Of a DNA stretch of 64,000 bases, positions 1,705-55,220 are shown in pieces (position 1 is the first letter of the stretch; each line of letters begins with the position of its first letter). The notes below the pieces were generated by a model. The model had not been told where the DNA came from and searched no databases. It saw only the letters and a list, made by a program, of their open reading frames with translations. Position numbers and translations under genes: made by a program. The stretch comes from Alphaproteobacteria bacterium (GTDB lineage Bacteria > Pseudomonadota > Alphaproteobacteria > UBA6615), in contig CBDHEC010000047.1 in the NCBI GenBank assembly GCA_965261975.1, positions 78,986 through 142,985 of the forward strand. The letters are read 5' to 3'.

Positions 1705-2601
1705 ATGAGCCTCGATTGGCCGACAGATCGCATCGATTTCAATCCCATCCATGGCCGCGCGCCGTTGCCCCTGCCGGAGGGACGCAAGGTCGTCGTCTGG
1801 CCTTGCATCAATGTCGAGAACTGGGTGATCGAGAGCCCGATGCCGCGCACGGTGGTCAATCCGCCGGGCGGGGTTGAGAAATCAGTGCCGGATATTCCCA
1901 ACTGGGCCTGGCACGAATATGGCCAGCGGGTCGGTTTCTGGCGCCTCAAGCGAATCTTCGATGAATTCGGCGCGAAGTCGACGCTCGTCCTCAATGGCAC
2001 CGTTTGTGACGTGTATCCGCAGATCGTCGATGCCGCCCTCGAGTCCGGCTGGGACCTTTGCGGCCATGGCTGGATTCAACGCGCCCTGCCGGCGGTCGAG
2101 GACCAGGAGGATATGATCCACCGGGTATTCAAGAAGCTGAAGGAATATTCGGGCCGAGACCCGAAAGGGTGGTTGGGGCCGGCCCTGGCCGAGACCCATG
2201 ACACGGTGGACTGGCTGCATGAGGCGGGTTTCGAGTATGTCGCCGACTGGGTGCTCGATGACCAGCCGGTCGACCTGCGGACCACGTCGGGTACCCTGGT
2301 TGGCTTGCCGTATACCCAGGAGCTGAACGATCTGGCGATGCAATTGATCCAGGGTCACCGGGCTCAGGAATATGGCGACCGCGCGATTCGCGAGTTCGAC
2401 CAGCTGATCGAGGATGCCACCGCCGAACCGGGATCGACCCGGATCATGTGCTTCACCCTGCATCCCTACATCATGGGGGTGCCCCATCGCGCCCGTGAAA
2501 TCCGGCGTATCCTGGAGCATGTCTGCAACCGCGACGATACGTTCGTGTGGACAGGCGAAGAGATTCTCGACTGGTACAAGTCGGTCCGCCCGTCCCAGTA
2601 G
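1705..2601 (+). CDS. Polysaccharide deacetylase (CE4) family protein, PuuE-like subgroup
   Basis: INVENW, WHEYGQRVGFWR, HGW, GWLGP, DDQP, LHPYIMGVPHR; RBS GGGAG before ATG 1705. Confidence 0.8.
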   Translation: MSLDWPTDRIDFNPIHGRAPLPLPEGRKVVVWPCINVENWVIESPMPRTVVNPPGGVEKSVPDIPNWAWHEYGQRVGFWRLKRIFDEFGAKSTLVLNGTVCDVYPQIVDAALESGWDLCGHGWIQRALPAVEDQEDMIHRVFKKLKEYSGRDPKGWLGPALAETHDTVDWLHEAGFEYVADWVLDDQPVDLRTTSGTLVGLPYTQELNDLAMQLIQGHRAQEYGDRAIREFDQLIEDATAEPGSTRIMCFTLHPYIMGVPHRAREIRRILEHVCNRDDTFVWTGEEILDWYKSVRPSQ

Positions 2602-2611
2602 CCCGCCGGGT

Positions 2612-2780
2612 CAGTCGGGCCGAACCAGGTTTGTGAGGAACGTGCCCGATTCGACCCTTTGACGAGTGGGCCCGGGGAGAGACTGGCTCTCGACGGGACC
2701 GGCGCGTCATACGGAACACGTCCAATCTTCGGCGCAAATCCTGGTTGCCGAATTTGAGGGACCGGCTGCGTGTTTCCGTA
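2612..2780 (-). ncRNA. Candidate sigmaE-dependent structured small RNA (three stem-loops)
   Basis: Lies directly downstream of sigmaE-type promoter 2789-2814(-). Stems 2769-2780/2710-2720, 2705-2709/2660-2664 and 2645-2657/2617-2629; mismatches are G-U wobbles only on the minus strand. Ends approximate. Confidence 0.55.
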
Positions 2781-2788
2781 CCACCTTG

Positions 2789-2814
2789 TACGACCGCCCT
2801 TTGTGTTTGGATCA
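2789..2814 (-). promoter_or_regulatory. RpoE(ChrR-type) promoter TGATCC-N15-TCGTA
   Basis: Same motif and spacing as four other sites in the window. Confidence 0.7.
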
Positions 2815-2854
2815 CAACGGGGCCGCCGATCGTGCTGTTGAGGTTCCGCGTGCT

Positions 2855-2880
2855 TGATCCGTCGCGGCGTCGAGCACGTA
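2855..2880 (+). promoter_or_regulatory. RpoE-type promoter TGATCC-N15-ACGTA upstream of SDR
   Basis: Motif and spacing match. Confidence 0.7.
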
Positions 2881-2915
2881 GAAAGAGGCAATAGCGTCGA
2901 TCGGAAAAGGGTCAA

Positions 2916-3695
2916 TTGATGTCGGTGAGTAAGCCTCGAATCGCGTGGGTCACGGGCGCGAGCCGTGGAATCGGCCATGCGGTGGCGCTGGAACTGGCGC
3001 GGGAAGGCTGGACCGTCGCTGCCAGTGCGCGAAGCGTTGCGGATATCGAGGCTCTCGCGGCGGCGTGTGCCGAATTTCCCGGGGCCGTCCAGCCGTTTCC
3101 GCTCGACATCACTGACGAAAATGCGGCGCGAGAAACTGTCCGCGAGATTGAAAATCGGCTCGGGCCGATCGACCTCGCGGTCCTCAATGCCGGTACCCAT
3201 GAACCGGTGGATGGCCGCGCCATCTCGGTGGCGCCATTCCGTCGTCTTATGGAGATCAATTACATGGGAACGGTGAATTGCCTGGCGCCCGTCGCCGAAC
3301 GGTTCGTGGCGCGGCGCGCCGGCCGCATCGCCGTTGTGGCCTCGCTTGCCGGTTACCGTGGGCTTCCGACGGCCAGCGCCTACGGGGCGTCCAAGGCGGC
3401 GCTAATCAATATGTGTGAGGCGTTGCGGCCGGAGCTTCGGGCCGCCGACGTTCTTCTGTCTGTGGTCACACCCGGTTTTGTGCGGACACCCCTGACCGAT
3501 CGGAACCCGTTCCCGATGCCGTTCCTGATCGATGCGGACACTGCCGCGCGGCGCATCGTGCGGGGCCTCGCCACGTCCCGGTTCGAGATCACTTTCCCGC
3601 GGCGGTTCTCATATCTGATGAAGCTGCTGAGGGTCTTGCCCTACATGCTCTATTTCGCGGTGACGCGTCGGGCATTGCCGAAAAGCGAAACCTGA
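2916..3695 (+). CDS. SDR family oxidoreductase (cfa/DUF1365-associated)
   Basis: TGASRGIG, YGASK, PGFVRTPLT..NPFPMPF. Confidence 0.85.
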   Translation: MMSVSKPRIAWVTGASRGIGHAVALELAREGWTVAASARSVADIEALAAACAEFPGAVQPFPLDITDENAARETVREIENRLGPIDLAVLNAGTHEPVDGRAISVAPFRRLMEINYMGTVNCLAPVAERFVARRAGRIAVVASLAGYRGLPTASAYGASKAALINMCEALRPELRAADVLLSVVTPGFVRTPLTDRNPFPMPFLIDADTAARRIVRGLATSRFEITFPRRFSYLMKLLRVLPYMLYFAVTRRALPKSET

Positions 3696-3708: not shown

Positions 3709-4971
3709 CTAGCCCGCGGACGTTATCCGGTACTGGGCGACGGAGATATTTCCGGCGCGGAACCCGGCCTCGCAATAGCAAAGATAATAGCGCCACAAGC
3801 GGCGGAAAGTTTCGTCGAAACCCTGGGCGGCGATCGTCGGCCAGGCGGCCTCGAAGGAAAGCCGCCACAGGCGCAGTGTCTCGGCGTAATCCCGCCCGAA
3901 TGTTCGGTTGTCCGAGATTTCCAGGCCCGCGTCGGATATTCCCTGTGCGAACCGTGTCGGGGAGGGCAACATGCCGCCGGGAAACACCCGAAGCTGGATG
4001 AAGTCGGGCGTGCGGCGATAGGCTTCGAACCGCGCTTCGTCGATCGTGATCACCTGCATACCGGCGATACCGCCGGGCCGGAGCCGTGCGCTGACCACGT
4101 CGAAGAAGGCCGGCCAGTAGGCCTCGCCGACCGCTTCGAACATTTCGATCGATGCGATCTTGTCGAACGTTCCCGACACATCGCGATAATCTTGCAAACG
4201 AACCTCGATCCGGTCGCTCAGGCCGGCATCGGAGATTTTCTGGCGCGCCCATGCGGCCTGTGATGGCGACACGGTCAGTGCGGTGACGCGACAGCCGTAT
4301 TGCGTGGCCACATGGATCGCAAACGCGCCCCAGCCGCAGCCGATTTCGAGCATGTGATCGCCGGGCTGGAGGTCCAGCATTTCCGCCAGCTGATCGAACT
4401 TGCGAATTTGTGCCGCGGTCACGGCCGTGCCCGAGCTGTTGCTGCCGGCATCGTGCCCGGCGTCGAAACAGGCGGACGAATAGGTCATGCTGGGGTCCAG
4501 CCATGCCGCGTAGAATTCATTGCCCAGATCGTAATGGGCGGCGATGTTCCGTCGGCTGCCTCTGCGCGTATTGGACCGCAACCGCAGGTGCAGGCGACCG
4601 AGCATTCGTGCGGCGCCCATGGGCGAAAAATGGTCGCTCAATGCATCGAGATTCTTGGCGCCCAGCTCGATCACGGCCGTGAGATCGTCGCTCTCCCAAT
4701 CGCCGGCGACATATGAATCCGCGAGTCCCAATGCACCGTCAAACAGGATGTGACGGGCGATGGTGTAGCGGTTGATCTTGATGGCGGCATCGGGGCCGTC
4801 GATGGGTCCCGTGGCACGGACGCGGCGTCCGTCGGGCAGTTCGATCGAGAGTTTTCCGGCCAACAGCTTCTCGGACAGGCGGTTCAGCGTGCTGGTCAGG
4901 AGGCGGGGGCCGATGGCGAGGCCGCGCGAACGGGGTTGAAGCGGAAAATCAGTCTGCGCGAACTGCGACAT
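3709..4971 (-). CDS. cfa: Cyclopropane-fatty-acyl-phospholipid synthase family methyltransferase (Cfa/UfaM-like)
   Basis: NIAAHYDLGNEFY, LDPSMTYS, LEIGCGWG, SIEMFEAVG, YLCYCEAGF; start 4971 or 4995. Confidence 0.9.
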   Translation of the reverse strand: MSQFAQTDFPLQPRSRGLAIGPRLLTSTLNRLSEKLLAGKLSIELPDGRRVRATGPIDGPDAAIKINRYTIARHILFDGALGLADSYVAGDWESDDLTAVIELGAKNLDALSDHFSPMGAARMLGRLHLRLRSNTRRGSRRNIAAHYDLGNEFYAAWLDPSMTYSSACFDAGHDAGSNSSGTAVTAAQIRKFDQLAEMLDLQPGDHMLEIGCGWGAFAIHVATQYGCRVTALTVSPSQAAWARQKISDAGLSDRIEVRLQDYRDVSGTFDKIASIEMFEAVGEAYWPAFFDVVSARLRPGGIAGMQVITIDEARFEAYRRTPDFIQLRVFPGGMLPSPTRFAQGISDAGLEISDNRTFGRDYAETLRLWRLSFEAAWPTIAAQGFDETFRRLWRYYLCYCEAGFRAGNISVAQYRITSAG

Positions 4972-5785
4972 GGGAAAACTTCCTCGGATCGACAACGATC
5001 GACACCGGGTTTGCGGGCGGTGCTGTGTGGCGGACGAGCGGCGTGCGTTTAAGCCACAAACGCAGCGCGTCCCAATGGATACTGGCGATCACTTTGAGGG
5101 TCAAAAGCGGGTAGCGCAAGATGGTCGAGGCAAGGAATTTATCGTTCAGTTCGACCCGTCGTGCGTGCAGGGTCGCGGCCAGCAATGGTCCGTCCCGGTC
5201 GCTTTCGCGAATGACGATGCTGACATCCGCACCAGGCGGTCGCAGCGTGATGTCATAGCGGCAATCCATCGGAATGAATGGCGAGACATGGAATACCTTG
5301 TCGAACCCGTGATGGAGGGTGGCGTCCGGGTCGTACGTACCGGTTTCTTCAGACTCATCGTTTCGTTGACCCACCAGATAGGTGTGGGATTCACCGAAGG
5401 TGTTTGCCACCTGATACAGCACCGCCGTCAATCGGTCGTCACGGTCATGGCAGAAATAGACGCTGAGAGGATTGAACGCATAGCCGAGGATGCGCGGCAG
5501 GCACAGGATGGATACCCGCCCGCCCGTCGGATCGATGCCGGCTGCCGACAACTGGGTATCCACCCATGCGCGCAGATCACTGCCGTCGCGCGGCCCGTGG
5601 TCGCGGTCGTGGAAACTGAACATTCCGGCCCTGTTGTGGGCAAAAAGCCGGGAGCCGCGGTCCAGATCATCGATCTCGTCCAGGTCGAGCAACAGATAGA
5701 AAACACCGTAGCGCAGTCGATGCGCGCGCGGCCGATGCCGGGCATGCACCACATGACCGGTAAAGGCTGTCGATCGTTGTGTCAT
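4949..5785 (-). CDS. DUF1365 family protein (UfaO-like)
   Basis: HARHRP..H, LPRILGYAFNPLSVY, NTFGESH, KVFHVSPF; likely start MTQRS at 5785 coupled to upstream stop. Confidence 0.85.
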   Translation of the reverse strand: MTQRSTAFTGHVVHARHRPRAHRLRYGVFYLLLDLDEIDDLDRGSRLFAHNRAGMFSFHDRDHGPRDGSDLRAWVDTQLSAAGIDPTGGRVSILCLPRILGYAFNPLSVYFCHDRDDRLTAVLYQVANTFGESHTYLVGQRNDESEETGTYDPDATLHHGFDKVFHVSPFIPMDCRYDITLRPPGADVSIVIRESDRDGPLLAATLHARRVELNDKFLASTILRYPLLTLKVIASIHWDALRLWLKRTPLVRHTAPPANPVSIVVDPRKFSHVAVRAD

Positions 5786-7170
5786 TCGGCAGCCGTCGCG
5801 TAACTGGTCATGTTGTTCGCCGAAATGTCTGCCGTGACGTTGATGCGGCTCGAGGGATCGGACAGCGACCAGGGGCGCATCTGACCCCCCAGGGCCTCCG
5901 CGACGGCAAGCCCGGATTGAAGTGCATCCTCGTGGAAACCGTATCCGAAGTAGCTGCCGCAGAACCATGTGTTGTGCGTGCCCTGCAATGACCAGAGTTC
6001 GGGTTGCGCCGCCAATGCGCCGCTGTCGAACATCGGGTGGTCGTACTCGAACATGGCGACCGGATTCGTCGGCGGCCGTTTGGGGTTCAAGGTGATGAAT
6101 ACATCCTCGTGGGCGTTGAGCCCCTGCAGACGATTTAGCCAGTAGCTGACCTGCGGCGGCCCGTTGTGGGTATCATCGCCTGCAGACGTGGCGGCGGCGT
6201 CCTCGCCAACATAGTTCCAGCTCGCCCAGACCGAACGTCGCCGTGGCATCTGCGTCGGATCCTTGTGCAGGTAGGTTCGGTTTCGCGTGTAGGGAATGGC
6301 GCCGAGCAGGGCGCGCTCGTCCGCCGTGGGGTCTGCCAGCAGCCGCAGGGCCTGATCTGCATGGGTGGCGATCACCGCGTGGTCGAAATCATGGACCCGC
6401 CCACGGTTGTCTGTGACCGACACACCGCCCGCGCGCCGGGTGATTCCGGCGACGCCCAGGTTTCGGTGAATGCGATTGGCGAAGGATGCGGTCAGCCGGT
6501 CGACATAGGTGCGGCTGCCGCCGGTGACCGTCCGCCATGTGGGCCGGTTGCGCAGTTCGAGCAACCCGTGGCTTTCGAAGAAGCGCACAAAGGCCTCTGC
6601 CGGGTAGGCGCGCATGTCTTCGGCGCTCGACGACCAGATGGCCGCCCCCATGGGGAGCAGATGATCTTCCACAAAGGCGCGCCCATAGTTGCCGCGTGAC
6701 AGATACTGGCCCAGCGACAGGCCGGCGAGTGCGCCGGCGGACAGATCTTCGGGAGCGACGCCATAAAAGCGTCGCAGATCGGCGAGCATCGACCAGAAGC
6801 GTGGCCGGGCGAGATTTCGCCGCTGACCGAACAGCCCGTTGGGCGCGTCACTGGAGTATTCCAGTCGCCCGCCGTCGAGCGATACCGCGAAGGACATGTC
6901 GCTTGACTGGGTCGGCACGTCGAGATGGCGAAAGAGCGCGACCAGGTTCGGATAGTTTCGCTCGTTGTAAACGATGAAACCCGTGTCCACGGGTGTGTCC
7001 CGACCATCCAGGGTGACGCTGCGCGTGTTCGCATGCCCGCCGGTCCAGCCGGCGGCCTCGAACACGGTGACCCGGTGGTACCGCGAGAGCTGCCACGCCG
7101 CCGACAGCCCCGCGATTCCGGTGCCGACGACCGCGATGTTGAGCACATGATGGTGCGAAGAGTCGGGCAT
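5782..7170 (-). CDS. FAD/NAD(P)-dependent oxidoreductase (UfaD-like fatty acid desaturase family)
   Basis: GxGxxG, VDTGFIVYNERNYP, GYGFHEDA. Confidence 0.85.
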   Translation of the reverse strand: MPDSSHHHVLNIAVVGTGIAGLSAAWQLSRYHRVTVFEAAGWTGGHANTRSVTLDGRDTPVDTGFIVYNERNYPNLVALFRHLDVPTQSSDMSFAVSLDGGRLEYSSDAPNGLFGQRRNLARPRFWSMLADLRRFYGVAPEDLSAGALAGLSLGQYLSRGNYGRAFVEDHLLPMGAAIWSSSAEDMRAYPAEAFVRFFESHGLLELRNRPTWRTVTGGSRTYVDRLTASFANRIHRNLGVAGITRRAGGVSVTDNRGRVHDFDHAVIATHADQALRLLADPTADERALLGAIPYTRNRTYLHKDPTQMPRRRSVWASWNYVGEDAAATSAGDDTHNGPPQVSYWLNRLQGLNAHEDVFITLNPKRPPTNPVAMFEYDHPMFDSGALAAQPELWSLQGTHNTWFCGSYFGYGFHEDALQSGLAVAEALGGQMRPWSLSDPSSRINVTADISANNMTSYATAAE

Positions 7171-7215: not shown

Positions 7216-7241
7216 TACGCTGATTCTGCTTTCCTAGATCA
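7216..7241 (-). promoter_or_regulatory. RpoE-type promoter TGATCT-N15-GCGTA for oxidoreductase-DUF1365-cfa operon
   Basis: Motif and spacing match. Confidence 0.75.
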
Positions 7242-7267
7242 CGCGCGGCGAAATTTGCGGGAAAGAG

Positions 7268-7293
7268 TGATCTGAGCTCCGGCGGGCGGCGTA
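7268..7293 (+). promoter_or_regulatory. RpoE autoregulatory promoter TGATCT-N15-GCGTA
   Basis: Motif upstream of rpoE ATG 7317. Confidence 0.75.
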
Positions 7294-7316: not shown

Positions 7317-8048
7317 ATGCACACCGAAGCCCTCCATATCGATGAGTTAAGTTCCCTGCGGGCGCCCCGTGCGCGCTCCGCTGCGGCGTCTCCTGCCTTG
7401 GTTTCGAGCGGCGTGGCGTCTAGAACGTCTGGAACGGAACGTGCGGCGGGACATCCTGCGGCATGGCGCGCAGCGAAGAAAGTGACGGCAAGAATGCAAA
7501 ATGGGGGCCCGGATTGGAGCGAAGTGCTGTGTGCCGTGGCCGAACGGGACAAGGCGTCTTTCGCCAGCCTGTTCCGGCATTTTGCGCCGCGGGTAAAGTC
7601 CTACATGCTGCGTCTCGGCTCGGACGATTCCCAGGCCGAGGACCTGGCCCAGGAAGCCATGGCCACGGTCTGGCGCAAGGCCGGTCAGTATGACCCAGCC
7701 CGCGCTGCAGCCTCGACGTGGATATTCACGATTGCACGTAACCTGCGTATCGATGCTTTCCGCCGCACAAACAGGCCCGAGCTCGACCCCGAAGACCCCG
7801 CCCTCGTGCCGGATGCCCCGCCTCAGGGTGACGCGGTGGTCGAACAGAAACAGAATGCCGCACGCATCCAGGCCGCGCTCGCGGAGTTGCCCGAGGAGCA
7901 GCGCCAGGTGATGCATATGTCCTTTTTCGATGAAAAGACCCATAGCGAGATCGCCGAGACCCTCGATCTGCCGCTGGGTACCGTCAAGTCCCGTATCCGA
8001 TTGGCCTTTGGGCGCGTGAAGGCGTCCATCGGCAGCGCAGAAGAGTAA
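7317..8048 (+). CDS. rpoE: ECF sigma factor RpoE (singlet oxygen response type)
   Basis: AEDLAQE, STWIFTIARNLRID, LPLGTVKSRIR; adjacent to chrR. Confidence 0.9.
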   Translation: MHTEALHIDELSSLRAPRARSAAASPALVSSGVASRTSGTERAAGHPAAWRAAKKVTARMQNGGPDWSEVLCAVAERDKASFASLFRHFAPRVKSYMLRLGSDDSQAEDLAQEAMATVWRKAGQYDPARAAASTWIFTIARNLRIDAFRRTNRPELDPEDPALVPDAPPQGDAVVEQKQNAARIQAALAELPEEQRQVMHMSFFDEKTHSEIAETLDLPLGTVKSRIRLAFGRVKASIGSAEE

Positions 8049-8741
8049 TTGCCCATGACCATTCACCACCACCCCGACGATGAACTGCTCGTTGCCTATG
8101 CCGCCGGCGAACTCGACGAGGCATGGTCGCTCCTGATCGCCACCCACCTGGCCTTGTGTCCTGACTGCCGTGCTCAGGTGCGCGCGGCGGAGAGCGTTGG
8201 TGCGGCTCTGCTTGAGGACATCGCCGCTGACGAACTGTCGGGAATGGCCGACGATGCGCTGGAGAAGACTCTGGCGCTTGCGACAGACCCCGCGGTGCAT
8301 CCGGCCGATGAGAAGCACGTCGCATCAGCGCCTGTTTCCGGAGATCCGGGCGGTGTCCCCGTCCTGCCACAGCCGCTGCGCGACTATGCGGGCGACGATG
8401 TGGACGGGCTCAAATGGCGGCGCCTCGGGTCGAGCGCGTTCCACATCCCGCTGGTTGCCCGGCGCGGTGCGCCGACTGCGCGGCTGCTTCGCATTCCTGC
8501 CGGCACCGCGGTGCCCGAGCATGGCCATAACGAGCTGGAGCTGACGATGGTCCTGGCGGGCAGCTTTGTCGATGCCGATGCACGGTTCGCGCGTGGCGAC
8601 GTTGAGACCGCCGACACTGATGTGGAGCATCAGCCCGTGGCCGAGGCGGGCACCGATTGTATCTGCCTCGCTGTGACCGACGCGCCGCTCCGCTTCCGCG
8701 GTCCCATTGCACGTCTGGTGCAGCCGTTTATCGGTATCTGA
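8049..8741 (+). CDS. chrR: ChrR anti-sigma-E factor
   Basis: [18 protein letters not shown] zinc motif, C-terminal cupin HGH..ELTMVL. Confidence 0.92.
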
Positions 8742-8817: not shown

Positions 8818-8894
8818 GCGCTCGTAGCTCAGTCGGATAGAGCGCGGGATTCCTAATCCCGAGGTCGCAGGTTCGATTCCTGCCGGGCGCACCA
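8818..8894 (+). tRNA. tRNA-Arg (anticodon CCT)
   Basis: Acceptor GCGCTCG/CGGGCGC, anticodon arm CGGGA-TTCCTAA-TCCCG, GGTTCGATTCC T arm, encoded CCA. Confidence 0.95.
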
Positions 8895-52718: not shown

Positions 52719-53198
52719 ATGACGGCACCCGCGACCCAAACTGATTACGATCCCTATGTCTGGCACGACGACACGCTCTACGGCATGCGGTTCCACACGC
52801 CTGATCTGACCACGCCCAATCCCGGCGCAAGCGACTGGGCCAGCCTGTTCATTCTGGATATCGACCATATCGTCGCCTGGGTACGCGCGGGCGAGACGAT
52901 GCGGTTTCGCATCGCGCCCGCCGACCTGATTTTCCGCGAGGTATGCGATCTCGAGATGGCCGTCGACTGGGGCGACTCTGACGGACAGATCGGACTGCAC
53001 GAGCCGGCCATCGACCAGATTGAGCGCGATCCGGTCGCGGTCGCGGATGGCCGGCCGTCGATGTTTCAGTGGCGGATCGCGTTGCGTAATCCCACCGGCG
53101 GTGTGATCGAGTTTCGCGCGCGCGGATTCGATCTGAATCTGCGCTGCGATCCCGTCTTGCGCGACGAGCAGCGCATGCCCGTTTCGGTGCGCGCCTAG
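52719..53198 (+). CDS. Hypothetical protein
   Basis: 159 aa with host-like codon usage; WHD..YG, LDIDHI. Confidence 0.6.
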   Translation: MTAPATQTDYDPYVWHDDTLYGMRFHTPDLTTPNPGASDWASLFILDIDHIVAWVRAGETMRFRIAPADLIFREVCDLEMAVDWGDSDGQIGLHEPAIDQIERDPVAVADGRPSMFQWRIALRNPTGGVIEFRARGFDLNLRCDPVLRDEQRMPVSVRA

Positions 53199-54487
53199 TT
53201 CGCGTCCAGGGGATAGTTCCAGATCAGCCGGATGGCGAGGAGCTTGAAGGCGACCGGCACCAGCCCGTAGAGGCCGGCGAGCACCAGGAGGGATGCGGGG
53301 CTGTTGGTCGCGGCATCGCCGCTGAACCCGGCGAGACCCAGAATCGGAAACGCGATGCCGACGCCCAGCGCCAGGGGTATCTTGGCGGCGACCCCCCACA
53401 GGCCGAACAGCATGCCGGTCCGCCGGGACCCGGTGCGTGCCGTATCGAGGTCGACGACATCGGCCTGCATCGAGGGTGGCATGACGAGCTCGGCCCCCAG
53501 CGGGATACCCGTCCAGATACAGATCGCGATAAACCAGGCGAGATCGCCATCGCCGAGCAAGGCCGCGGGCCAGAAGCCCGTCGCGGCCATCGACATGGCG
53601 AGGATCCAGCTGCGGCGCTTGCCGAGGCGGCGGCTGACCGCCAACCAGATCGGCAATGCCGCGATCGCGCTTGCGAAGTAGATGATCAGCAACAACCACG
53701 ACCAGTCAGGCCGGCCCAGAACATGCTCGGTGTAGAGGAGAAACAGCGTGGCCGGCAGGCCGTAGGCGATTCCGTTGACGAAATAGGCGGAGATCAACTG
53801 GCGGAAGGGATGATTGCCCCAGAGTTGCCCGAGGCCGGACAGCACCGGTTTCTGCAAGGCTGGTTTCGCCACGGGCGGATCGGGCAATGCCACCAGTGCG
53901 ATGCCGATGGTCAGCGGTGCGAGCACGAGCAACGCGATGGCGGTCCCGTCCATGATGATCGCGCGGTCGATGCCGAACAGGGCCGGGACTGCCATCGCGC
54001 ACAGGGTACCGATGACCAGCGCGGCCTCCCGTGCGCCGGCGATCCGGCTCCGCTCGTGATGGTCCGACGAGAGTTCGGCCGCCCAGGCCGTGTAGGGCAG
54101 CATCACCATCGTGCCGCCGAGATAGAGGGTCGCGGTGGCCATCGCCAGGTGGGGCCACCCGATGGCGGCAGGGGGCTGGAACAGGGCCCACGCGCCCGCG
54201 ACCATCAGCGGGATCCCGGCCAGAAGCCAGGGCCGTCGGCGCCCCAGACGGCTGCGGGTGCGATCCGACAGGGTGCCGACCAGGGGGTCGGTCACGACGT
54301 CCCAGGCGCGTGCCAGAAGCAGGACCAGTCCCACGGTCGTGAACCCGAGGCCCAGGTCGTCGGCATAGTAGGTCGGAACCGTGATGAAGAGCGGCAGCAG
54401 GAGGATGGCGAGCGGCAGCCCCGGCAGGCCATAGGCGAGAAGTTGCCCGCTCGACAGGCCGCGGGAAGGGGTTGATGGGCGGTCCAC
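53195..54487 (-). CDS. MFS/GPH family transporter
   Basis: DVVTDPLVGTLSDRT..GRRRPW, PSMQADVVD. Confidence 0.88.
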   Translation of the reverse strand: MDRPSTPSRGLSSGQLLAYGLPGLPLAILLLPLFITVPTYYADDLGLGFTTVGLVLLLARAWDVVTDPLVGTLSDRTRSRLGRRRPWLLAGIPLMVAGAWALFQPPAAIGWPHLAMATATLYLGGTMVMLPYTAWAAELSSDHHERSRIAGAREAALVIGTLCAMAVPALFGIDRAIIMDGTAIALLVLAPLTIGIALVALPDPPVAKPALQKPVLSGLGQLWGNHPFRQLISAYFVNGIAYGLPATLFLLYTEHVLGRPDWSWLLLIIYFASAIAALPIWLAVSRRLGKRRSWILAMSMAATGFWPAALLGDGDLAWFIAICIWTGIPLGAELVMPPSMQADVVDLDTARTGSRRTGMLFGLWGVAAKIPLALGVGIAFPILGLAGFSGDAATNSPASLLVLAGLYGLVPVAFKLLAIRLIWNYPLDAN

Positions 54488-54497
54488 GGTATGCCGG

Positions 54498-55220
54498 CTA
54501 GCGCCGCGCGTTCATGATGGTTCCCGCCATACTGATGGGGACATCGCCCAGCCGTTCCACCAGCCGGTACGTGACCTGCGCACCGCGCGCCACGAAGGCC
54601 AGCCCGACCAGGACGCCGCCGTCGTCGTACCAGAGGTCGATCTCGAGATCGCCTTCCATCCGGTATTGGGTGGCCGGGATCATGCCCGCCGGGCCGGACA
54701 CCGGCTCGCGCCCCACCCGGCGTACCGCGACCTCGAGCAACTCGCCGGTCTGGGAATTGATCAGCTGGTTCTGGCGCACCGTTGCGGCCATCCAGTAGGT
54801 CGAGGGCAACATCGAAGGCGTGACGGTGATGGCGGCCGTGTCGTCGGCAATGACCCGCAGGCCGCCACCGTCGGAAACCGCCTGTACCCGGTGCCGGGTC
54901 CCGTTGTCGTCGGTAACGCTTTGCAGGGCGACGAGCTGCCCGCCGCGCCATTCCGTACGGTTTGTATGGCTGTAGGTAAACACGGTGAACGGGCCGAACT
55001 TGATGTTGAGATCGATGTCGATCGCCACGTTCAGCCTGTCATCGGGCCGGCGTTCGAAGGTGAGGGCATGTTCACCGATCGGCCGGCCGTCGAGATCGAC
55101 TTCGAAGCGCAGGACGCTGTCGCGTGATGCGTCTGCCGACAGTTGCGCGGCGGGGAGAATAATCAACCCGGCCAGGACGGCACCCGCGGAAATATATCTG
55201 ATGATGTGCTGCATGATCAC
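54498..55220 (-). CDS. Exported protein (DUF6134-like)
   Basis: F.V..DG..IGEH, YSH.N.TEW..G.L, PSTYW, LWYD. Confidence 0.7.
   Translation of the reverse strand: MIMQHIIRYISAGAVLAGLIILPAAQLSADASRDSVLRFEVDLDGRPIGEHALTFERRPDDRLNVAIDIDLNIKFGPFTVFTYSHTNRTEWRGGQLVALQSVTDDNGTRHRVQAVSDGGGLRVIADDTAAITVTPSMLPSTYWMAATVRQNQLINSQTGELLEVAVRRVGREPVSGPAGMIPATQYRMEGDLEIDLWYDDGGVLVGLAFVARGAQVTYRLVERLGDVPISMAGTIMNARR

Follow-up and report, generated by a model that had tools for sequence, protein, structure and literature searches.

A candidate RpoE-controlled small RNA conserved beside a short-chain dehydrogenase gene in uncultured alphaproteobacteria

In a 64,000-nucleotide stretch of DNA from an alphaproteobacterium of the UBA6615 lineage (contig CBDHEC010000047.1, positions 78,986 to 142,985; hereafter the window), two plus-strand genes flank a gap at 2602-2918. 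To the left is an open reading frame (ORF) of the polysaccharide-deacetylase type (1684-2601), and to the right a short-chain dehydrogenase (SDR) gene (2919-3695, with its ATG at 2919). The subject of this analysis is the minus strand of that gap, where a predicted small RNA (sRNA) of ~170 nt occupies 2782-2613. It is placed there by its folds and by the match of its core to the covariance model R1 described below; for the start, near 2782, a distance of 7 nt past the -10 box was assumed, and the end was set at the last hairpin. A sequence-only reading of the window had proposed a TGATCC-N15-TCGTA promoter on the minus strand, aimed into a gene-free gap. Such a promoter is present at 2814-2789, and with both neighbouring genes on the plus strand it is aimed as described. 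Written as TGATCC-N16-CGTA, which is the same site (TCGTA lies at 2793-2789), it comprises a -35 element TGATCC at 2814-2809, a 16-nt spacer and a -10 element CGTA at 2792-2789. Pattern match and conservation in homologous loci identify it as a promoter of the RpoE (ECF11) type. It stands back to back with a divergent plus-strand promoter of the same type at 2855-2880, belonging to the SDR gene. The promoter pattern matches three times in the 64-kb window against 0.30 expected, and TGATCY-N16-CGTA five times against 0.17, a number reached by none of 100 shuffles. A scan of 2300-3200 for sigma-70 promoters gave no promoter-like site.

The predicted RNA is built of three hairpins. Hairpin 1 (2710-2780) is the variable part of the family, and in the window it has a long stem UACGGAAACACG/CGUGUUCCGUA with inner helices CCGGUC/GAUUGG and UUCGGC/GCCGAA and an unpaired CCCUC at 2760-2756. 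Hairpin 2 (2669-2700), which provides helices 1 and 2 of the consensus fold, has an outer helix GGUCC/GGGCC and an inner helix GAGA(G)/(C)UCUC, followed by the C-run; a further closing helix, UGACG (2709-2705) with CGUCA (2665-2661), is possible and is seen in full-length and subgroup folds. Hairpin 3 (2617-2657), consensus helix 3 and the presumed terminator, is a 13-bp G+C-rich stem with a 15-nt loop that carries GUUCCUC (2641-2635). The stems had been named beforehand from the letters, and the minimum free energy fold of 2785-2612 on the minus strand reproduces them: the long stem with both inner helices, GAGAG/CUCUC inside the outer helix, and GGGUCGAAUCGGG/CCUGGUUCGGCCC. Five G-U pairs had likewise been counted; there are five in the named stems and seven over the full fold. 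This fold has a free energy of -71.7 kcal/mol (z = -2.85), matched by one of 200 shuffles, while for the plus strand of the same region z is -1.22 and 18 of 200 shuffles fold equally well.

How general is the element? The SDR protein served as query in one scan of species-representative genomes, which gathered 80 related loci (given L numbers here); the family members described are thus SDR-linked. All 80 come from metagenome-assembled alphaproteobacteria, many of them labelled Rhodospirillaceae or Rhodospirillales. By blastn the entire spacer is matched in L001 (93%), positions 2606-2768 of the window in L002, and 2613-2682 in L005, L015 and L012. The body of the RNA is the sole part of the spacer still detected by blastn in relatives whose SDR proteins are 65-84% identical. 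R1 was built on the conserved core, hairpins 2 and 3, from a seed of nine sequences whose spacers have a common layout, and searched over the 81 sources (949,643 bases). Ten sources match on the RNA strand at E <= 6e-13, namely the nine seed sequences and one non-seed locus, L004 (71.2 bits); the window core, 2613-2711, scores 89.7 bits. Of the 18 matches at E <= 1, the other eight are seven weak ones of 16-24 bits, which echo these RNA sites on the opposite strand, and one of 16 bits in L010. The RNA-bearing set therefore has ten members: the window, L001, L002, L004, L005, L006, L009, L012, L015 and L075.

The promoter is conserved together with the RNA. TGATCC-N16-CGT(A/T) lies just upstream of the RNA in all ten loci, and in an ungapped stack of the upstream region (52 columns) the invariant positions are G + TGATCC and CGT, with spacer and flanks varying. 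A plus-strand TGATCY-N15/16-CGTA for the SDR gene is also found in all ten, back to back with the first at a distance of 15-45 bp.

The fold is conserved in the same set. The three-hairpin layout had been proposed for the window, with covariation in relatives as the check; full-length folds give three hairpins in all ten members, and the changes between them are in part compensatory. RNAalifold on a MAFFT alignment of nine sequences yields 22 pairs, of which four are compensatory. When all ten are fitted to the model, pairing holds in 97.3% of the 220 pair cells, and in six pairs (14 cells) both partners have changed; helix 3 alone includes four pairs with compensatory change. Sliding the structures by one to three columns leaves none or one compensatory pair. 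The covariation score is reached by none of 500 column shuffles, a figure that is not a probability and can be exceeded through relatedness, since the rows are related and two pairs of them (window and L001, L005 and L015) are near-duplicates. Hairpin 1 takes two forms, being long and branched in the window, L001 and L002, and a short 9-bp hairpin in L004, L006, L009, L012 and L075. Analysed separately, the latter subgroup has 43 consensus pairs with nine compensatory, three of these in the short hairpin 1.

Which strand is the RNA? Of the 220 pair cells, 214 pair when read on the minus strand and 198 when read on the plus strand, and there are 18 G-U against two A-C cells. A G+C-rich terminal hairpin is present in all ten members, and in five (L004, L005, L006, L012 and L015) it is followed on the minus strand by a run of at least four U. 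The excess of G-U over A-C cells, and the U-tracts in half of the members, argue that the minus strand is the RNA strand.

The setting of the promoter adds to its credibility. At 7317-8048 (plus strand) the window encodes the presumed regulator, RpoE, a sigma factor of the extracytoplasmic-function (ECF) class with Sigma70_r2/r4 Pfam matches. It is followed directly at 8049-8741 (plus) by chrR, encoding an anti-sigma factor of the ChrR family with zf-HC2 and ChrR cupin domains (TIGR02451, 220.4 bits; cut-off 124.5). The RpoE-ChrR pair is well studied as a switch in the response to singlet-oxygen stress, and its core regulon is described as a set of protein-coding genes, conserved as rpoE-chrR and the furan-fatty-acid genes (PMC6852236). 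The five TGATCY-N16-CGTA sites of the window precede rpoE (TGATCT-N16-CGTA, 7268-7293, plus), a cyclopropane-fatty-acid (CFA) operon (7241-7216, minus), the SDR gene, a DUF6134-MFS_2 gene pair (55252-55227, minus) and the small RNA; all are assigned by pattern match. The CFA operon, on the minus strand, comprises genes for a flavin amine-oxidase-type protein (5782-7170), a DUF1365 protein (4949-5968) and a CFA-synthase-type methyltransferase (3709-4995). In Rhodobacter sphaeroides the RpoE operon RSP_1087-1091 encodes an SDR, a hypothetical protein, a GPH symporter and two cyclopropane-type fatty-acid proteins (PMC7074977), so that this operon and the SDR gene of the window are of the same gene types (PMC7074977; PMC6852236). 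Because the surrounding genes are rpoE-chrR and the types of its regulon, the promoter of the small RNA is a credible one.

Could the active product instead be a peptide? Pos19, an RpoE-dependent sRNA of R. sphaeroides, is described as holding a translated small ORF (sORF) of 150 nt (PMC5036791), and a dual-function or purely coding RNA of that kind would be one explanation of the present family. In its favour, L004, L006, L009, L012 and L075 have GUG or AUG followed by CGU UCG in the conserved loop of hairpin 1. Yet no ORF keeps its frame, start or stop among the homologues. The candidate ORFs vary in start codon, position and frame, and most, having no internal stop, continue antisense into the neighbouring gene; a Shine-Dalgarno-like word precedes only two of the 18 listed (one in L002, one in L015). 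The C-run has indels of 1-2 nt, and substitutions track base pairing rather than codons. A coding role thus seems most improbable. The non-coding character, the promoter and the conservation are here taken together, and they make it highly probable, on the evidence of sequence comparison, that this is a conserved non-coding RNA gene driven by an RpoE-type promoter.

Nor is the element readily explained by its neighbours. It lies upstream of the SDR promoter and on the opposite strand, and we rejected its identity as an SDR leader on that ground. Downstream of the RNA there is a deacetylase gene in eight loci, FolB in L001 and a different ORF in L004; these three different neighbours indicate that the RNA is independent of the downstream gene. 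A mere terminator of the deacetylase gene was rejected too, as L001 and L004 retain the RNA without it. A broader form of this idea is that nothing functional remains, the place being either decaying spacer or the promoter of a former fasciclin gene joined to a two-way terminator serving the convergent deacetylase gene. Hairpin 3 does start only 12 nt past the deacetylase stop codon, with UUU behind it on the plus strand; the equivalent divergent TGATCY-N16-CGTA in L007, L008, L010 and L011 drives a fasciclin-domain gene with a leader of ~35 nt; and L003 and L014 have lost the element. Against this, tblastn with two fasciclin proteins over the 81 sources found no relic of such a gene in the ten RNA-bearing sources at E <= 10. 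In relatives with 65-84% SDR identity, blastn still detects the RNA body and no other part of the spacer, and conservation with compensatory changes extends beyond hairpin 3 to the other two hairpins and the loops. Both the G-U pairs and the U-tracts favour the minus strand, and the two loci with other downstream neighbours count against a terminator role here as well. We consider a functionless leftover very unlikely.

The most conserved positions of the RNA lie not in its stems as such, and they suggest how it might act. They are two C-rich words, UCUCNCCC and GUUCCNC. The first (2674-2682 in the window) joins the 3' side of the inner helix in hairpin 2 to the C-run behind it; it occupies invariant alignment columns and includes CUCCCC, an anti-Shine-Dalgarno-like candidate seed. 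The second is in the loop of hairpin 3, where GUUCC-C is invariant among the homologues. The C-run has a predicted unpaired probability of at least 0.97 in eight of the ten homologues and 0.65 in L001, and the hairpin 3 word is unpaired at 0.57-0.81 across the members, against whole-molecule means of 0.29-0.40. That unpaired parts of the window copy carry C-rich words had been claimed from the sequence: in the 2785-2612 fold CCCUC, an addition of the window's subgroup in hairpin 1, reaches 0.78 and GUUCCUC 0.81 (0.57 on the 178-nt window transcript), while the CCCC that follows CUCUC is at ~0.5. In four of the five members of the other subgroup the short hairpin 1 carries (A/G)UGCGUUCG in its loop, at 14-24 nt from the predicted 5' end in L004 and 15-27 nt in L006, L009 and L012. 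This word, which the window's subgroup lacks, may serve as a third seed or be a feature that resembles a start codon.

From these parts the following sequence of events can be proposed. ChrR would release RpoE in response to singlet oxygen or peroxides, by analogy with R. sphaeroides, and RNA polymerase with RpoE would initiate at TGATCC-N16-CGTA. The two back-to-back promoters would switch on the small RNA and the SDR gene jointly, and transcription of the RNA would stop at hairpin 3. The RNA would then act in trans, its UCUCCCC(C) and GUUCCCC words, and the CCCUC of the window's subgroup, pairing with G-rich ribosome-binding regions of target messages and lowering their translation. Adjacent hairpins with C-rich loops are described as characteristic of the cuckoo/CcsR/ar14 RNAs and of RNAs from staphylococci, and the loops are read as seeds for ribosome-binding sites (PMC4615179); it is because of this analogy that a trans-acting repressor of translation is proposed. 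We regard 2782-2613 as likely to be a free-standing non-coding RNA gene of ~170 nt in the RpoE-ChrR (ECF11) stress regulon, acting in trans as proposed. The particular mechanism of anti-Shine-Dalgarno pairing, which is argued by analogy, is put forward tentatively, its chances being a little under even.

The same loops might serve a protein instead. An RpoE-controlled RNA that binds or titrates a protein through its C-rich loops, with no pairing to messages, would equally have short invariant motifs in apical and internal loops (GUUCCNC, UCUCNCCC) presented on conserved stems, and a scan of the nearby genes found no conserved target site (see below). We know of no protein in alphaproteobacteria that binds C-rich loops of this kind, which we count against the idea. 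Moreover, such loops are generally read as the sRNA signature of pairing with ribosome-binding sites (PMC4615179). Protein titration appears improbable to us.

Together with the relatedness of the aligned rows noted above, several observations weigh against the reading of the element as a trans-acting RNA of the RpoE regulon. The RNA is known from sequence alone, and its hosts only as metagenome-assembled genomes (MAGs). The final A of the -10 box is kept in nine of the ten loci, L001 having CGTT. L003 and L014 fall inside the small-RNA clade of the SDR tree yet have no RNA, from which it follows that the RNA is dispensable in some lineages. In the window the C-run has an unpaired probability of 0.51, and part of it can pair. 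A search for complements of the conserved motifs at 3-14 nt before start codons, covering ORFs of 60 codons or more in the window and the nine loci, had only scattered matches, none conserved between loci; 64 kb is too small for target prediction. Finally, a simple scan of 2300-3200 for terminators found no hairpin followed by a U-run, and the window copy has no U-tract behind hairpin 3. Since L001 and L002 also lack one, the 3' end is uncertain and antisense read-through into the deacetylase gene is possible.

That last point can be made into an explanation of its own, in which the RNA acts in cis: transcription induced by RpoE would run past a weak terminator, antisense to the convergent deacetylase gene at its 3' end, and lower the expression of that gene. 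The window, L001, L002, L009 and L075 all have no run of four or more U behind hairpin 3, and in the window the gene ends 12 nt from the hairpin. Five homologues, on the other hand, have a clear U-tract terminator, and in L001 and L004 there is no deacetylase gene downstream to be affected. Action in cis also leaves the conserved loops and the three-hairpin fold unexplained. We judge it quite unlikely, and return to the trans-acting RNA.

What is the element related to? Pos19 (RSs0019) had been named as a precedent in the sequence-only reading. It is an RpoE-dependent sRNA of R. sphaeroides whose published promoter, TGATCC(N15)GCGTA, differs by one base from that of the present RNA, and the two share the arrangement of a free-standing small RNA behind an RpoE-ChrR promoter, in the case of Pos19 with a singlet-oxygen response (PMC5036791). 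The terminator hairpin of Pos19 is described as having no poly-U tail, as in the window copy (PMC5036791). There are also differences. Pos19 is 219 nt long with a Shine-Dalgarno sequence before its translated sORF, while the family described here has predicted lengths of ~135-178 nt and no conserved ORF. Pos19 is located on chromosome 2, flanked by cxp and fadB, and is described from R. sphaeroides strains only (PMC5036791); the present RNA lies beside the SDR gene of the regulon in ten species at the level of MAGs.

In architecture the closer likeness is to cuckoo, CcsR (RSs0680) and ar14. These RNAs, which are induced by oxidative stress in R. sphaeroides, have two to four adjacent hairpins with C-rich anti-Shine-Dalgarno-like motifs (PMC4615179), to be compared with three hairpins in ten of ten members here. 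The element probably works in the same way, to judge by that analogy. The cuckoo family is, however, defined by CCUCCUCCC in each hairpin loop (PMC4615179), and this motif is absent from all ten of our sequences, which instead have GUUCCNC/GUUCCCC in a loop and UCUCCCC(C) in an internal loop. Furthermore, the CcsR RNAs share a transcript with RSP_6037 that starts at an RpoHI/HII promoter (PMC4615179), in contrast to the RpoE-type promoter found here. The element is therefore like Pos19 in regulation, by a comparison of descriptions only, and like the cuckoo family in architecture, and is a member of neither. The UCCC-loop sRNAs of Staphylococcus, such as RNAIII, in which C-rich loop words are proposed to make the first contact with ribosome-binding sites (PMC4615179), offer an analogy in mechanism only, coming from an unrelated phylum and differing in size and regulation.

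A repressing RNA arm beside protein-coding genes in an ECF regulon has a precedent in the sigma-E sRNAs of enterobacteria, MicA, RybB and MicL. Those belong to a different ECF group responding to a different signal (envelope stress, through RseA), and their sequences are unrelated; no match to any of the three was found in the Rfam scans of the window. In the open-access papers searched we found no sRNA linked to ChrR outside Rhodobacter, and Pos19 was the only RpoE-dependent sRNA encountered there.

The suggestion that the RNA founds a new family was examined against Rfam 15. At gathering thresholds only a tRNA passes in the window, and in permissive scans nothing overlaps the element at E <= 10 (2500-3000 of the window) or at E <= 5 (L002, L004, L006, L009 and L012), so that neither the window nor five further members have a match. 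Within the window blastn of the spacer gave no second copy, only matches of up to 37 nt at E >= 0.056, and R1 finds a single copy; a search of a plasmid collection in distant mode found no match. The element thus looks like a new sRNA family of a familiar kind of regulator, unmatched in Rfam 15 and set apart from Pos19 by description. In each of its structural parts, the sequence-only reading of a photo-oxidative stress sRNA, possibly of a new family, has the support of the relatives.

If this is so, the element would be an RNA arm of the RpoE-ChrR regulon, shared by multiple species, tied to the core genes, and present in abundant uncultured marine alphaproteobacteria. R1 provides a concrete model with which it can be annotated in MAGs and metatranscriptomes. 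A wider question is made testable in this way: is post-transcriptional repression a general part of the ECF11 response?

The fasciclin genes raise the further question of where the RNA came from. An SDR tree was computed for the window, L001-L022 and L075, thus covering 23 of the 80 loci; the other 57 are more distant and were not included. All ten rows with the RNA belong to a single clade of 12 (support 88/85), whose other two rows are L003 and L014. The sister clade (support 99/98) consists of L007, L008, L010, L011 and L013, and thus includes the four loci in which a fasciclin gene follows the equivalent promoter. L013 (4106-4651) and the outlying L021 (4935-5480) also have, nearby, a fasciclin gene with its own RpoE-type promoter, and in R. 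sphaeroides the fasciclin gene RSP_1409 appears in the RpoE regulon table (PMC7074977). The terminators of these genes, with a stem CCGGACCRG/CYGGUCCGG and a CCCCCAC loop, resemble hairpin 3. A second model, R2, made from hairpin 3 and searched with filters off over seven fasciclin loci (67,428 bases), gave fasciclin terminators as its top matches (L008, E 3.8e-4; L010, 3.2e-3; L007, 0.2). These fall on either strand, the first two of them on the wrong one; the stem is close to a palindrome. The terminator of L013 matched at E 2.9, and there was no match in L021 or in the truncated L011. A hairpin 3 profile run with nhmmer over the 81 sources found no fasciclin terminator at E <= 10. One account of these similarities would be that the RNA was born from a fasciclin message of the same regulon, which in the ancestor of the window's clade lost its coding sequence, kept its promoter and 3' end and was reshaped into a free-standing riboregulator. 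The statistics are mixed, and we think this possible but unlikely. Were it true, it would be a dated and traceable case of an sRNA derived from a message, possibly by way of a pre-existing sRNA from the 3' untranslated region, and the switch between fasciclin gene and RNA at a single promoter site may be an example from nature of how an sRNA gene originates.

The remaining observations concern the surroundings of the element. To the left of the deacetylase gene are a second SDR gene (437-1222) and a gene for the dihydroneopterin aldolase FolB (1219-1647), which are syntenic in most of the RNA-bearing loci. The pterin-pathway gene folE2 appears in the R. sphaeroides RpoE regulon table, and with FolB close to the RNA there may be a link between pterins and the RpoE regulon. 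The deacetylase gene has been gained or lost: it is absent (5586-5700) from L001, the closest relative with 97% SDR identity, which retains the RNA. In L003 (1-416) and L014 (3660-3850) the deacetylase gene and the RNA are both missing and FolB abuts the SDR gene.

The promoters of the amine-oxidase/DUF1365/CFA-synthase operon (minus) and of rpoE-chrR (plus) are both TGATCT-N16-CGTA and stand back to back at 7216-7293, a divergent layout that mirrors that of the small RNA and the SDR gene. Directly behind the fifth RpoE-type promoter is the DUF6134 gene (54498-55220, minus), with the MFS_2/GPH-type transporter gene downstream of it (53195-54487, minus). The two resemble the hypothetical-protein and symporter pair RSP_1088/1089 of R. 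sphaeroides, but are 50 kb from the other genes of the operon. Read from the ATG at 7317, the start that fits its promoter, rpoE has ~80 residues before sigma region 2 (7317-7560), which is long for an ECF sigma factor; either the protein has an N-terminal extension or its true start is a later one. Just past chrR there is a tRNA gene at 8818-8891; L002, L004, L006 and L012 likewise have a tRNA about as far downstream of the SDR gene (~5-6 kb).

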